A stretch of 64,000 nt of DNA from contig NW_026782137.1 of the NCBI RefSeq assembly GCF_031769215.1, positions 434,001-498,000 on the forward strand. The letters are read 5' to 3'. Below are positions 3,001 to 9,000 of the stretch, piece by piece (position 1 is the stretch's first letter; each line of letters opens with the position of its first letter). The position numbers were made by a program. Source of the stretch: Ylistrum balloti (lineage: Eukaryota).

Positions 3001-6000
3001 TTGAGTGTCCATCATGAGTCAATAGGATGATTGGCGAAGCCATTTTGATTCTCCTTTTGCACAGCACTGCAGTGAAAGCACCAAATACAGGCAGCAGCTT
3101 TCAGATGCATCTGTTGCACAGACTCCAAAATGGCGATATGATTTTCAGTCACATTTCTTACCTCAAACACGCAAGAGTTCCAATAAAAAAATAATGCGAG
3201 TCTGGGATTATTTCATTGAAGACTTTCAACGACCAAAATTTGTGAACGATTTTGAACATAATAGTACTACCACGGACTTATATACACCATATATATATAT
3301 TCCATATGAAAATCCTCAAGATGAAAGATTGGACTGGCTGAAAAATGACTTCTTGGGCTACCTGAACCAGTGGAAAAACAATGTGAATGGAAGACCAAAT
3401 CTGACCACTTCGGAGAAAGCTAGCATGTTACTGAGTCATCAGACTGTTACTGGCCTTGAAACATCAGTTAGATCAATCACAGAATGTGTAAAATATATCC
3501 TGAACCTCGGAGCAAGTTTTGTGTTGACTCATGCTTTTAATCAAGATCCTCTTGAGGAACATTTTAGTCACCACAGGCACAAAGGAGGAGCCAACAATAA
3601 CCCCTCTGTTTATGAAGTGAGAAATGCACTTACACAAATCCGTGCAATAAATGCTCAGGCACTGGTTCCCAAAAGAGGAAATACATTAACTGTTGACAAT
3701 AACATGCAAATTGACAATACCAGATTGCCACGCAGAAATGTTATGAGACTGTAATGGTTGTCTTGTTGTTGAATGTACATCATGTAAAATGTAGATTTGT
3801 ACAGCTTGCTTATTACTTTAGCACCAGAATGTCAATTTTACTTTTTGTAGATTTTGTTAAAAGATTGAATTTGTAACTGCTTTGAAGCAGTTCTTTTCTT
3901 TAAAGTGTGCTGTCAGAAGTTTCTTTAAAAGTACATTGTATAATATTCAAGGATGTATGAAAGTGTGTATAATATGTAAGGATGTATGAAAGTGTGTATA
4001 ATATGTAAGGATGTATGAAAGTGTGTATAATATGTAAGAATGTATGAAAGTGTGTATAATATGTAAGGATGTATGAAAGTGTGTATAATATGTAAGGATG
4101 TATGAAAGTGTGTATAATATGTAAGGATGTATGAAAGTGTGTATAATATGTAAGGATGTATGAAAGTGTGTATAATATGTAAGGATGTAAGAAATGGTGA
4201 ATAATATCACAGTATGGATGAAAGTGTGTATAATATGTAAGGATGTATGAAAGTGTGTATAATATGTAAGGATGTATGAAAGTGTGTATAATATGTAAGG
4301 ATGTATGAAAGTGTGTATAATATGTATATATATCCAATAAAAACAAAAATTTCATTTATGACATTTTGTGTAATGCTTTAATTAATTACATTTCAATGGT
4401 TTTGAAGTACCAACATAAATTATATATACATTGTATGTGAACACAGACTTTATTGCAGTTTATAATGGTTGCACATGAAACACCATCAAGTCTTAAATAA
4501 ATCAAATCATACAATTATATACAACCTTGCAGGAGTAGTGATGAACTTTTAATAACAAAAAATGCAAACTTTAGTTATTTGAACAAAAATGAAATAAAAA
4601 GTTGATGTGGACTTGTAACAAGATAGTGCCTTATCAATATGAATACTATTTACATTGTTGTCTTAAAGAAATATTTTCAACTCCCATGAACAAAGGCAGG
4701 TCATGCATTTACTTAACTTGGGCTTATTGCTGAGAAACAGTAAATATTGTGTGATCATATATCTAGAAGGCTGAAGTTTCAATGAATGTCAAACTTTTGT
4801 AATTTCTCAGATTAGCAGAAGTGATACTATGCCAGCAACAGTTCTGTTGTTTCTATCAATTTAGTAAATCATGGACTGAAATTCTTAGAATAAATAGTAT
4901 AAACAAATCAGCTGAAGCTATTTCCCCACTAATATAAATGAATGAGTCGACAGTAACTTAGAATGTATCCCACATGAATGAAATTTACATCACTGTTTTA
5001 AATTTCCACGTAGACTTTTTGAAGGTTGGCACTTGAGATTGACTTTTGCCAATTTGTTTTTTTGTATTCTCACCATGGCATTTCCTCTTATGGTAAGAAA
5101 TAGATGGACAACATCTTCTAAAATCTTGGTTGGTGTTTCTGGGCATTCCTCAAGCTCACAACTGAATATCTTTGAACTGTAGTGTTTCACCATAAACTCT
5201 TCCATCAGGCACTCTTTCAATGGCTCCAGGTTGAGTGAACTTGACGTTAGGCAGTTTTCCTCAATAGTGTTTCTCACAACAATTTCTAACTCGCGTATCA
5301 AAAGGAAAAAATCGTCACAGGGAAATCTCAGACCACCTCTGTCCTTCTTCCTCGTCCAAGTTTGAAATTTTGTAACGAAAGTTGTTGGCTGATGAACACA
5401 GTCTACTTGCAATGAATTCACTACAGTTAACCTGTCTTTGAAACTTTCACACTTGGAATACTTTTGATTCAATGATTTCAAAATATAACCAGAAATGTAA
5501 AACAGAATCTGCTGGTCTCCATCAGATATTTGCAGTTGGCGCTCTTTAGAAATGGCAGTCTTGACTGATATTTGGGTGGACAAAATTTTCTCTAATAATG
5601 TCAGTAGAAGTATTTGTACAAAGTTATGAACTGATGATATTTCAAAACCTAAACTGGTGTATAGATTGATGTATTTTGTCCTGAGATCCTTGTTAATGCG
5701 AGCAGTGTGTAATTTTCTTAACAAAGACTCCCTTTGCAGAGCTGAGGAAATTTCAATACCTGATGAAAATAAGTCTGTGAATAAACTGAAGTAAAAATCT
5801 TCTAAACAACAGTTCCCTAGAGTGAAATCACATAACACTGAAAAATTAGGACCCCCAAGAAGTTGTTGCAGCTCGTCAGCCTTCAGTGAATGTACTGCTA
5901 CCCGGAAACTCTCCTTGAAACTGTCTGGTGACAACTCACATGTATCCTGTTTGACTGGAACCTGCACTACTGGATAGTTGCTGGTAGTGTCACTGGGGAT

Positions 6001-9000
6001 TTTACTGGCTCTGGCACTCTGGCTTTTATTGTCATTAGCTGAAAAATATATGAGAACATCAGGGGGTGATCTTAGTGTAAACATTGAATTTTTGCAAAAT
6101 CACAATAGTTTCATTTTTAAATTTTTTAAATGATTTTAAATAATGTTCAATTGTCACTTTTGTCAGTGTTTATTTGACAGAGTTATTGCCCCATTGTTAA
6201 CAAAACATCACACTTTGTTTCCATGCAATAAGTTTAACAAATGTTGACAGATTTTCTTCATATTTGATAACAAGGTTTAAGGAATAAAGTGCTTGACTGA
6301 ATTTGATTGCCACTTTTTTCATAGTTGTTTACCACCAATATGCCGGGAATGTACGTGAAATAAATTCCACGAATTTGCTCGTTAATTTGTAAATCAATAG
6401 TAACTCAAATTCATTAAAATTGAACCCCCACAAATATGGATGATTATACAGTAACCATACTAAATGATTTTACATTAAACTATCTTTGTGACAAAACAAG
6501 AACTGAGAGTTCAAAATACAAATATACATTTTGTGGTGTAAGTACCCATACCAACAGAATATATGATTAATCTGCTTTAAACCATTAGAGTGCAAGTAAA
6601 TGTTGAATTAAACTCGAGTTAATTTGTAATTCACTACAAAATAAAATGGCTTGGGATATTACAGTTAAAACAGAACTTTGTAAAAGAATGTGCATAATTA
6701 GTCATTCATAGCAAGCCAAACAAAAGTAAATAAGATTCTGTGATTGTCCATAATGTCATTGAAGTATTTGTTTTGAATTAAGTCACAAAATATTTACTGT
6801 CTTACAGTTAACTTGTTACAGTTGAAATCCAGTCTTACTGTTGAATTATGAATACAGCTTTAATCAATCATCATCATTATTATAAACAAATTCATCATCC
6901 TCCCTTTGATTATATTATCATTCTCATGATAACACCATTATCATCATCATCATGCTATTAATCATCATCTTAACCATCATCATAAAAATCATCTACCTTG
7001 TTATAATCTTGATAGTCAATCAAAATCAGCAAAAGACAATATCCAGACAGCAGAGAAGAATTTGTCATTTTCCTCATGCACATTTTCACACGCAGACAAC
7101 ACTCACACATTTTTCATAGAATGAAGAAAGAAAATGTATTGATGAATAGAGAGTGTGAGATGGAGAAAGAGGTCATCAGATAATAAATAGAGAGAGCAAG
7201 ATGGAGAAAGAGGCCATCAGATAATAAATAGAGAGAGCAAGATGGAGAAAGAGGCCATCAGATAATAAACAGAGAGAGCAAGATGGAGAAAGAGGCCATC
7301 AGATAATAAATTGATAAAAAAAAAAAAAAGAAAATCATCAGTCGACACAAAAAATCAAGTTTGACAAGGTTTTCCCATTTTTCCATTTGTTAATAAAATT
7401 TAATTTAAAGGTGTCATTTCTGCTGTTTGAGACATATAATTGAACAGAAAAGACTTTGTGCAAGGGCATTGATAATTAAAGAACTACAGGTATGCAGACA
7501 TCTTGTCTTTATAATGCAGTTTTTGATCATTGAAATTATGTCATTGTCATCTCATAAACTAGAGCTATTTGTAACTTTCAATTACAAATAGAAAACATTT
7601 TCTGTTAAAAGATGATGATATAAACAATGCACCAGTAAGCAGCTCTTGTATGGGTACTTTCTGGAACCAAGGAAGTTTCATATTTATCATTACCTGGAAT
7701 AGCATTTTATAGATATCCTTTCATATTTTAGAATAATTCATTAATATAACATTAATGTATCATATACTATAGCTGCAGGTGATAATTTAAGAAAATCATG
7801 CACTTTTCCCTTTTGTTAGATGATTACCACATCTCAAAAATGTTTTCTCTTTGACAAAGAATCTGACATTTATCATCAAACTAAATGACAACGGAATATG
7901 GTTATTACTTCCTGAAGATTTATAATTACATTTTTATCTACACTTAAAAGGTAAAGTTCCACTCAATATAACTGTGTGTTTCTTTTCTTCTTTTTTTTTC
8001 TTTGCTGAGATGAGGTCAGGAAAATAATACCAAGTCTACTGTTAATTTAATGTATTATAATAAAATTATTTATTTTCTTCACTCAATAATGATTATTAAA
8101 TTTAAAGTGCTGCAGGAGAGTTTAAGTAAATATATACTTATCAAATATTTGACCTGAATCAAAGAAAAATAAAAAGAAGTTTGCATCTTCTGAAACAGAA
8201 AATACTACTAATGTATGTAGGCCTACCTTTTAAATCGTTTCTCCCGTGTTTTCTAGAGGTGTGACCACGAAATCCAGCTATAGTCTTTAGCTGTTTACTA
8301 CATACAGGGCAAGTATAAATAGTTCTTGTAGTTGGTGGTAGGTTTTCTTGATCTAATTTTCGTTTTTTCACCACAACACACTCCTCAACATCACTTTCCA
8401 AATCGTTCTCTACATTGTCATAGTCGGTATATTCTTCCAGTAAGAAATCTAAGTCTATATCGCTATCCCAGGAAAGAAAATCAGACTCTTTTGACATTAA
8501 CTCTTGAAGCTCCGATAACTTTTTTTTTTTTTTTTTTTTGAAGCTCCGATAACTGTAGTCTTCCTTCGATTAAAACGAAATGACTGTTTTAGACTTACCT
8601 CACTCTTCCCTTACGATTGCGTCGGGCTGGCGCCATCAGCACATATTATGGTTTCATTTAACGCATTATTTGGGCTGTGTATCGAGCTGTCAAATCAATG
8701 TCACATCATCGGTCGCTGATGTAAACAAAATGCCGGAAATCGAAAGAAGCGGTCCGCGCAGGCGCGATAGGAAGGATTAAAGGTAAATTGAGAGGCAGAC
8801 AGTCGTTACGCTCCGCTGCGCAAATATAAAAGGTGGACAATACACATGCGGAGCTGAAGACAAGTTGCCTATCCCTGTGTATATAAGTCCGTGGTACTAC
8901 CGTTGACTACAAATGTCATCAAACAAGTAACCACAAATTAAAAGTTTCTATGTTATTTGATAGCATCAACAAAGGGGGATAACTCTCAGTATTTATGGAC

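Follow-up and report, generated by a model that had tools for sequence, protein, structure and literature searches.

We find that positions 3271-8893 of the stretch of Ylistrum balloti DNA analysed here (64,000 nucleotides, hereafter the window) are probably an internally deleted, two-gene transposon of the P superfamily, in which the product of the second gene would act in trans as the C-terminal domain (CTD) of the transposase. The module carried by this second gene is homologous to a transposase CTD, and that CTD is absent from the transposase. The P element is the textbook case of a eukaryotic transposon with a single protein, and its domesticated relative in humans is THAP9. In the window, a single 5,623-bp element encloses both genes between perfect 17-bp inverted ends and a 7-bp duplication. 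Its features are as follows.

3264..3270, no strand: left target-site duplication (TSD) GTACTAC, 7 bp; the same 7-mer occurs again at 8894-8900.
3271..3287, + strand: left terminal inverted repeat (TIR), 17 bp, starting CA; perfect reverse complement of 8877-8893.
3288..3301, no strand: TA-rich junction of 14 nt from the left TIR to transposase codon 778 (the internal-deletion joint), from reading the sequence; homology to the protein P0151 begins at 3302.
3302..3754, + strand: transposase gene remnant, the last 150 codons and stop, with the QDPLE..GG..NP motif and a short conserved tail (tblastn with P0151; Pfam PF21789).
3937..4326, no strand: 29-bp tandem repeat, 13.4 copies, between the convergent genes (Tandem Repeats Finder, 93% matches, score 696).
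4990..6038, - strand: second gene, exon 2, 348 codons and stop after a split codon; helical body with the homologue of the P-transposase CTD (open frame, library homologues, AF2 model).
5038..5532, - strand: CTD module, residues 185-349 of the exon-2 frame, with a basic helix at its end (hhalign to P0177 663-832; 6p5a_B top in both the PDB profile search and Foldseek).
6039..8226, - strand: second-gene intron, GT..AG, 2188 nt, containing a 41-bp tandem repeat at 7145-7311 (donor and acceptor read; homologues span both exons).
8227..8497, - strand: second gene, exon 1, acidic N-terminus and one C2H2 finger at 8246-8317 (zf-C2H2_6; homologue N-termini align).
8877..8893, - strand: right TIR, 17 bp, pairing with 3271-3287.
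8894..8900, no strand: right TSD GTACTAC, matching 3264-3270.

These bounds were the single match in a search for a 7- or 8-bp TSD with a 14-nt TIR, in which element starts could fall at 1-3301 and ends at 8570-11999. Of 200 dinucleotide shuffles, counted separately for the first 12 kb, none contained an exact TSD of 7 bp together with a perfect TIR of at least 12 nt. The duplicated sequence fits GTANTAC, the target consensus reported for Galileo of the P superfamily (PMC4168063), and both 7 and 8 bp are reported as TSD sizes in the superfamily (PMC4168063, PMC10983969). The inverted repeat had also been read as an imperfect TIR of 37 nt or as the outward-facing ends of other elements; both readings were dropped. 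The repeat splits into the 17-bp perfect TIR and a near-palindromic 7-bp direct repeat.

At this locus the transposase is a remnant, reduced to its last 150 codons. The plus-strand frame 3026-3754 matches Pfam PF21789, TNP-like_RNaseH_C (E 1.6e-6, 28.4 bits against a cutoff of 24), and 3302-3751 corresponds with 100% identity (tblastn) to residues 778-927 of P0151, a 927-aa protein of Y. balloti; a start at 3299, as given in the original prediction, lies within 3 nt of this homology. No part of residues 1-777 of P0151 was detected across the full 64 kb with a cutoff as loose as E<=10, and the corresponding codons were apparently lost from the window copy by incomplete gap repair. P0151 itself has matches to PF21787 (3e-24), PF21788 (5e-21) and PF21789 (6e-6), of which the window retains only the last. 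The possibility that 3302 begins a last exon was rejected: there is no AG acceptor in the 38 nt upstream, and the junction at 3288-3301 is therefore not a splice junction. Further, the nearest intron-like gap in the transposases of two related elements treated below (L001 and L004) lies at profile position ~752, as placed by domain boundaries, and does not coincide with P0151 residue 778, which is position 742. The window copy is thus an internal-deletion derivative that has kept its second gene intact, and its two ends as well. Such a copy should be mobile only with transposase supplied by a full copy elsewhere.

The stop codon at 3752-3754 falls 70 residues past the start of QDPLE, and a short conserved tail is kept in all 25 transposase relatives. 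Twenty-three of these fit the motif pattern, with the protein stopping 65-73 residues beyond it; the remaining two, P0155 and P0175, have a variant motif, with tails that are equally short by eye. Because all 25 end equally short, the stop is the natural end of this transposase lineage, as had been claimed from the sequence of the window. The full-length proteins of the lineage have a split RNase H with a GTP-binding insertion domain. The window lacks the N-terminus, but six full-length relatives were scanned for a THAP domain and none had one at E<=0.1. This domain is reported to be missing from some THAP9 orthologues as well (PMC10824691). A CTD module is likewise not detected in these transposases: with a hidden Markov model (HMM) of the second-gene family at maximum sensitivity, none of the 25 relatives scored above 0.5 bits, and neither the L001 nor the L004 transposase contained it. 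An hhalign comparison of the second-gene family with the short-tailed transposase family gave 0.3%. The original prediction's notion that the family's full-length transposases do without this module is borne out by these searches.

The second gene lies on the opposite strand and thus is not an unannotated downstream exon of the transposase. Its minus-strand frame, 6084-4990, encodes 364 aa and includes the two motifs by which the module had been recognised, LFYISGYILK at residue 194 and RGGLRFP at residue 249. A two-exon model joins 8497-8227 (donor GTAGGC) to 6038-4990, with the acceptor TTTTTCAG ending at 6039. This model comprises 439 codons, a figure reached by arithmetic on exons that were never joined, whose summed length is divisible by 3; the predicted numbering to residue 439 and the end coordinate 6038 both fit it. 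All five homologues that have N-terminal regions match both exons in order (tblastn), and the N-termini of P0005, P0019, P0002 and P0007 align to exon 1. The finger in that exon matches zf-C2H2_6 at E 0.001, under the Pfam cutoff. Given that the frame stays open for 369 codons in DNA of 33% GC and that all conserved family residues are present, the second gene of the window copy is judged intact. The AF2 model of exon 2 is all-helical (pLDDT 85.6), and residues 317-364, with 10 K+R against 2 D+E, form a basic C-terminal helix.

The second-gene family is large, with 412 library representatives at E<=1e-3, the best 150 of which are 87-480 aa long. It has no Pfam family of its own in the Pfam copy used, and the window protein has no match to PF12596 at E<=1. 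No protein at least 50% identical to it was found in the libraries, the best being 44%; a word-index search with the exon-2 protein gave only two distant matches, and an ESM Atlas search only C2H2 leads, below 0.9. When a family profile from a smaller alignment was run against genome contigs, 0 of 23 stretches were confirmed. In the mollusc branch, an acidic stretch, a single C2H2 finger and an additional helical region come ahead of the CTD homologue.

The module is linked to a transposase CTD through P0177, a fused TNP-like transposase. Aligned by hhalign, the family matches P0177 residues 663-832 (96.5%, E 8.6e-10) over 155 columns that reach the C-terminus of that protein; these C-terminal 170 residues follow its RNase H C motif. 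P0177 is the one fused relative that forms this bridge, being the only match of the family profile (E 2e-6) among proteins of 841-2400 aa, while fused forms of 637-841 aa fall outside both the word-index and the family-profile searches. A precomputed label, PF22824.3, is common to P0176 and P0177, with no match in the local Pfam copy or in the literature searched, and P0177 alone matched no P transposase among PDB sequences. With a profile of 64 family sequences, the best PDB match was the C-terminal chain of the Drosophila P transposase, 6p5a_B, at a weak E of 0.01; the alignment places the YIAGY and GGL..PS blocks in order. Seven of the 64 family members have sub-threshold matches to PF12596 (Tnp_P_element_C) at E<=0.1; the best, P0016, scores 22.1 bits, under the gathering cutoff of 22.6 bits, and the second gene of L001 matches weakly at E 0.038. 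The model of the CTD domain is all-helical (pLDDT 90.1), and 6p5a_B is its first-ranked Foldseek match, though not a significant one (E 0.40; prob 0.72, TM by target 0.54). For the whole model, 6p5a_B ranks 23 (prob 0.92, TM by target 0.67) and is alone above a TM by target of 0.24 among the matches listed. A likeness to the P C-terminus, as proposed in the original prediction, is seen in the profile searches and, below significance, in the fold. Each match to the Drosophila CTD is weak by itself (HMM E 0.01; Foldseek E 0.40 and 1.2).

An important question is whether the two genes belong together outside the window. Their co-occurrence was surveyed at six loci, L001-L006, the records of which are titled as prokaryote metagenome-assembled genomes (MAGs). 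We take them for eukaryotic DNA because gaps bounded by GT..AG interrupt the frames; such a gap was read at one junction of L004, and in L001 the acceptor only. Both loci with a complete transposase 3' end have a convergent second gene alongside, inside TIRs with target duplications.

L001, 8576-14396: element with the transposase on + and the second gene on -; 40-bp perfect TIR starting CATGG, TSD GTTAAGG.
L004, 7175-13938: element with the transposase on + and the second gene on -; 613-bp TIRs of 99.3% identity, TSD CCAAAGC.

A two-gene unit bounded by TIRs and TSDs is thus common to three elements, and in all three (GTACTAC in the window, GTTAAGG in L001, CCAAAGC in L004) the duplication is 7 bp long. 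The L001 and L004 transposases are short-tailed and only 31-32% identical to the scallop one, which indicates that the two-gene layout is old. At L003 and L005 there are transposase fragments without a 3' end and without a second gene; at L006 a fragment lies 5 kb upstream and is not convergent. The original prediction had placed the missing module on a separate, convergently transcribed protein with its own C2H2 finger. The module and the convergence stand, and the survey bears out the pairing of the two genes at both loci with a complete transposase 3' end; the finger is not universal, being absent from the second genes of L001 and L004, and is on that account outside the core design.

We propose that full elements of this lineage would carry two genes: one for a transposase of about 900 aa, of the TNP/THAP9 type, that stops some 70 residues past the start of its last catalytic motif and has no CTD, and a convergent one whose product carries the CTD homologue. 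The second protein would join the transposase on the transposon ends and replace the fused CTD in trans. If this reading of the sequences is right, the second protein supplies the missing domain and transposition would need two polypeptides. The Drosophila enzyme makes such an arrangement plausible. Its CTD is reported to lie between the RNase H domain of one transposase subunit and its partner subunit's GTP-binding domain, to be attached by a flexible, disordered linker, and to touch transposon and target DNA through a basic helix in the strand-transfer complex (PMC7776569). A flexibly linked domain that sits between two subunits and contacts both DNAs could plausibly act from a separate chain. 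The C2H2 finger, where present, may add DNA recognition, a suggestion prompted by the lack of a detected THAP domain in the transposase lineage.

Alternatively, the second gene could encode a regulator of the element, for instance a repressor or a protein that sets copy number or target choice by competing for the ends, and not an obligatory subunit. The deletion derivative in the window, which keeps this gene intact and loses the transposase, would suit such a role; repression by truncated P products is known (PMC7776569), and antisense regulation could also arise from the convergent 3' ends, which abut or overlap. We nevertheless consider a regulator unlikely: what is conserved is exactly the domain that the transposase lacks, this domain contacts both DNAs in the Drosophila strand-transfer complex, and the layout has been retained across transposases as dissimilar as those of the scallop, L001 and L004. 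A still less probable view is that the second gene is captured cargo, or a neighbouring gene that is independently mobile or domesticated, with its CTD likeness an old relic. The family is indeed large and consists mostly of stand-alone proteins, no close copy was found elsewhere among the proteins of this genome, and at two of the six loci the transposase occurs without the second gene. Those two loci, however, hold only transposase fragments that lack the 3' end, and in three separate elements the gene sits within the TIR/TSD bounds in identical convergent order. That the minus-strand frame is just the C-terminal part of another full-length P-type transposase copy lying in inverse orientation is highly improbable and already contradicted, for although it carries the module found C-terminally in fused transposases, it starts with an ATG of its own and includes an acidic N-terminus and a C2H2 exon to which homologue N-termini correspond, the best 150 of the 412 library matches are all at most 480 aa, and the minus strand has no RNase H or GTP-binding-domain similarity.

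The division into a transposase and a CTD protein raises a broader possibility, to which we give even chances: that a whole and ancient branch of the P superfamily works with a transposase of two subunits. This branch would occur in bivalves, gastropods and at least one further eukaryote lineage, and its catalytic chain would have lost THAP head and CTD alike. The CTD, joined in molluscs by a C2H2 finger, would come from an element-encoded partner, a swappable subunit to which the recognition of the ends and the capture of the target are handed over.

Among the nearest known counterparts is the Drosophila P element (87-kDa transposase, PDB 6P5A; PF21787/PF21788/PF21789 and PF12596). It shares the split RNase H with GTP-binding insertion, TIRs starting CA and internal-deletion derivatives, as well as a CTD, helical by model in the scallop protein, that contains YIAGY and GGL..PS blocks and is basic at its end. 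The scallop element differs in having its CTD on a separate gene of the opposite strand, a TSD of 7 bp instead of 8 bp, no THAP domain detected in its full-length relatives (0 of 6, E<=0.1), and a second protein enlarged by a helical half and, in molluscs, by a C2H2 finger. Galileo, a P-superfamily element of Drosophila, likewise has a 7-bp TSD (PMC4168063), as well as long TIRs (as in L004) and frequent non-autonomous deletion copies. In the account consulted, it has one THAP-bearing transposase gene, with no mention of a second gene (PMC4168063). Vertebrate THAP9 and zebrafish Pdre2 belong to the same transposase family as the window element, but they have a fused CTD, a THAP domain, an 8-bp TSD and a single gene. 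Pdre2 is reported to combine short TIRs and a TSD with subterminal repeats, and its CTD is modelled as part of the transposase chain itself (PMC10983969). PIF/Harbinger elements are alike in outline, with a catalytic protein and a second element-encoded protein, although their transposase superfamily is unrelated. Their partner is a DNA-binding Myb-like protein, not a domain split from the transposase. PIF/Pong elements are reported to carry two ORFs (PMC5543537).

No P-type element with a separate CTD gene was found described in the literature searched, outside which lay Repbase, subscription journals and supplements. What is new here is the presence of both genes in one TIR/TSD-bounded element and the same layout in the distant L001 and L004. 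What the C-terminal region of THAP9 does is described as still uncharacterised (PMC10824691). In a lineage whose CTD is a protein of its own, the function of this domain would be open to clean genetic dissection, by adding or omitting it. Such a lineage would also be a case of a transposase divided into subunits within one element, and a possible route to transposon tools with an exchangeable DNA-contacting subunit. For annotation, members of the second-gene family become readable as transposon genes and not as orphan zinc-finger proteins.

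A short-tailed transposase without the C-terminal domain (CTD) of P transposase and a homologue of that domain on a second gene are carried together in one mobile unit, in three elements. In the window, the stop-to-stop frame 3026-3754 (+) holds PF21789, the C-terminal part of the TNP/THAP9 RNase H domain. By tblastn, residues 778-927 of P0151, a 927-aa protein encoded on another contig ('uncharacterized protein LOC132556865 [Ylistrum balloti]'), lie at 3302-3751 with 100% identity over 150 residues, which identifies the source as a scallop; no trace of residues 1-777 was found in the whole 64 kb, even at E<=10. 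The transposase relatives number 25 (P0151-P0175; 428-1040 aa) and come from Pecten, Argopecten, Mytilus, Dreissena, Haliotis, Littorina and others. The QDPLE motif pattern is matched in 23 of them, with 65-73 residues from the motif start to the protein end; the remaining two have a variant motif and tails just as short. The tail is itself conserved (RGN ... IDNT.LP.RR). All 25 stop soon after QDPLE. Transposases of this lineage therefore end naturally with the short tail, as the original prediction had held for the window frame. PF21787, PF21788 and PF21789 (TNP/THAP9 transposase domains) occur in all six full-length relatives scanned, and neither THAP nor PF12596 (Tnp_P_element_C) was detected in any of the six at E<=0.1.

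The tail's conserved basic peptide (RGN ... D.T.LP.RR) is common to P0151-P0175 and to two of the further loci considered below, L001 (12554-12931) and L004 (11788-12099). The peptide could serve in nuclear import, as a signal, or as a docking site for the second protein.

The window element is made up as follows.

3264-3270 and 8894-8900, direct: target-site duplication (TSD) GTACTAC, 7 bp
ends of 3271-8893, inverted: perfect terminal inverted repeats (TIRs), 17 bp
3937-4326: tandem array, 29 bp x 13.4 copies, between the convergent genes
6084-4990, minus: second-gene exon 2 frame, 364 aa from the first ATG, open for 369 codons
7145-7311: tandem array, 41 bp x 4.1 copies, inside the second-gene intron
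8497-8227, minus: second-gene exon 1, with an acidic stretch and one C2H2 finger

Among P-superfamily elements, Galileo-like ones are known to contain satellite-like arrays. The TSD and TIRs come from a search that paired every start at 1-3301 with every end at 8570-11999 and asked for a 14-nt inverted repeat adjoining a direct repeat of 7 or 8 bp; it returned a single match, the element at 3271-8893 (5,623 bp). A separate count covering the first 12 kb found, among 200 shuffles, none that contained an exact 7-bp duplication with a perfect TIR of at least 12 nt. An imperfect inverted repeat of 37 nt is present at 3251-3287 and 8877-8913, and its exact 20-nt core is longer than that in any of 100 dinucleotide shuffles. 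Only 14 TA-rich nt separate the left TIR from transposase codon 778, and the window copy is therefore an internal-deletion derivative; it retains the entire second gene. According to PMC4168063, such copies in the P superfamily are ascribed to inefficient gap repair, and Galileo, of the same superfamily, makes 7-bp duplications with the target consensus GTANTAC, which GTACTAC fits.

In the second gene, a donor (GTAGGC) begins at 8226 and the intron closes at 6039 with the acceptor TTTTTCAG; together the exons have a length divisible by three (439 codons), and this model matches both the 439-residue numbering and the end coordinate 6038 of the original prediction. The exons were searched one by one. 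Homologues support the splice: all five with N-terminal regions match both exons in order, and exon 1 aligns with the N-termini of P0005, P0019, P0002 and P0007, of which P0002, P0005 and P0007 continue past the junction ('...LKA(S/T)DH...'). Exon 2, searched exhaustively with HMMER, has 412 representatives at E<=1e-3, of which 132 reach E<=1e-10 and 27 reach E<=1e-30. The top 150 of the 412 are short (87-480 aa) and match at their C-terminal ends, which marks them as stand-alone proteins. No protein more than 44% identical to the window's second gene was found in the library searches, for which the HMMER matches listed are the best 150 of 412. The C2H2 finger that had been proposed for this protein is present in exon 1 (zf-C2H2_6, E 0.001, under the Pfam cutoff), and 11 of 24 longer family members scanned have a single N-terminal one (E<=0.01). 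Directly upstream of the ATG (8497), 20 consecutive A within 8505-8553 (-) sit between two exact copies of a 15-nt direct repeat (8553-8539 and 8519-8505); this segment, in the 5' region of the element, has the appearance of an insertion made of poly(A) alone that produced a separate target duplication.

Is the C-terminal half of the second gene a P-type CTD? Four independent lines of evidence say yes, with strength decreasing from a fused transposase to the fold. Among proteins of 841-2400 aa, a 64-sequence family profile matches one TNP-like transposase, P0177 (database-wide E 2e-6), a protein of 856 aa with PF21787 and PF21788. The match (residues 663-740) follows the RNase H C-terminal motif and an acidic linker, and hhalign pairs second-gene residues 185-349 with P0177 663-832 over 155 columns (96.5%, E 8.6e-10). 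The best match of the same profile among all PDB sequences, a weak one, is the Drosophila P transposase CTD chain 6p5a_B (E 0.01), with the YIAGY and GGL..PS blocks collinear. Further, 7 of the 64 family members have sub-threshold PF12596 matches (best 22.1 bits vs a cutoff of 22.6); on its own, the window protein matches no Pfam family at E<=1. The predicted resemblance to the P-type C-terminus is supported by these profile comparisons. Finally, the AF2 models are all-helical and confident (pLDDT 85.6 for the whole, 90.1 for the domain). In Foldseek, 6p5a_B ranks 23 by E-value for the whole model (E 1.2, prob 0.92), where its TM by target of 0.67 makes it the sole listed match to exceed 0.24, and first in the PDB for the domain model (E 0.40, prob 0.72, TM by target 0.54). 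The likeness of fold is suggestive and does not reach significance.

The module is indeed missing from the transposase lineage, as predicted: at maximum sensitivity the family HMM gives at most 0.5 bits on each of the 25 short-tailed transposases, and hhalign of the second-gene family against the transposase family gives 0.3%. Nor can it be a missed transposase exon, since it lies on the opposite strand. A precomputed label, PF22824.3, is attached to both P0176, a stand-alone second-gene homologue, and P0177. It had no match in the local Pfam copy, and we found no paper naming it; the module may already be modelled in a newer Pfam release.

A contig scan with the transposase alignment yielded six further loci, all in MAG-titled records and 28-35% identical to P0151, whose six-frame ORFs were scored with both family HMMs.

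L001: transposase 9845-12931, plus; second gene 14119-13044, minus, E 4e-31
L001: perfect 40-bp inverted repeats starting CATGG, 8576-8615 and 14396-14357; TSD GTTAAGG (self-comparison)
L004: transposase 9044-12099, plus; second gene 13121-11952, minus, E 9e-31
L004: 613-bp inverted repeats, 99.3% identity, 7175-7787 and 13938-13326; TSD CCAAAGC on both sides (self-comparison)
L002: transposase cut at profile position 638; adjoining convergent second-gene fragment
L006: second-gene fragment 5 kb upstream
L003 and L005: transposase fragments only

The suggested co-occurrence of short-tailed transposases with this second ORF holds at L001 and L004, the two loci where the 3' end of the transposase is complete; in both the second gene is convergent. 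Their transposases end about 75 residues past the motif in a ...PLP.R.R-type tail, and their second genes both have the Y.(A/S)G(Y/F) and RGGL blocks and lack a C2H2 finger. The frames of the two loci are broken at shared profile positions, and one junction reads GTATGT...TATACAG in L004, with the acceptor TTTTTACAG in L001; given these shared breaks and GT..AG-type signals, we take both loci to be putative eukaryotic DNA within MAG bins. The contigs of L001-L004 and L006 (CBDBCZ010000016.1, 15.1, 10.1 and 17.1; CBDBCE010000002.1), up to 2.5 Mb, are titled as Nitrospirales and Nitrosopumilus MAGs; from their sequence, the bin parts holding these loci look like eukaryotic DNA. Transposase similarity stops at profile position ~637-639 in L002 (9725-12121), L003 and L006, three of the four loci of one record set, and in L001 it picks up again past a gap at the same position, which may reflect either a deletion breakpoint common to these loci or simply the edge of an intron.

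PMC7776569 describes the Drosophila CTD as an all-helical domain on a flexible disordered linker, with one subunit's RNase H domain on one side of it and a different subunit's GTP-binding domain on the other; it touches both transposon and target DNA, and its terminal basic helix points at the target. The architecture of a split transposase is supported, and for its functional step we infer that the second protein would take the place of this CTD in trans. Its last 48 residues hold 10 K+R vs 2 D+E, matching the basic end of the Drosophila domain. More speculatively, the mollusc C2H2 finger may replace the absent THAP domain in locating ends, and the conserved transposase tail may serve to dock the second protein. 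We found no published description of a P-type element with a separate CTD gene, in a search that lay outside Repbase and subscription journals.

The window as a whole is AT-rich animal DNA (GC ~33%, zero N), no part of which looked human, and it has other open frames.

16217-17671, plus: 484-codon open frame with a Cys-rich C-terminal part
43991-48213, minus: two long open frames
60697-63707, plus: LTR-retrotransposon pol frames (RVT_1, RT_RNaseH_2, rve, Integrase_H2C2), split across several frames

The first of these has an RVT_1 match just below the Pfam cutoff (29.4 bits vs 29.6) and presumably resembles Penelope-like elements. In the second, one frame carries the 7TM domain of the secretin family (PF00002, E 3.5e-18), the 774-codon Cys-rich frame upstream has no Pfam match, and the two are probably a host adhesion-type receptor gene.
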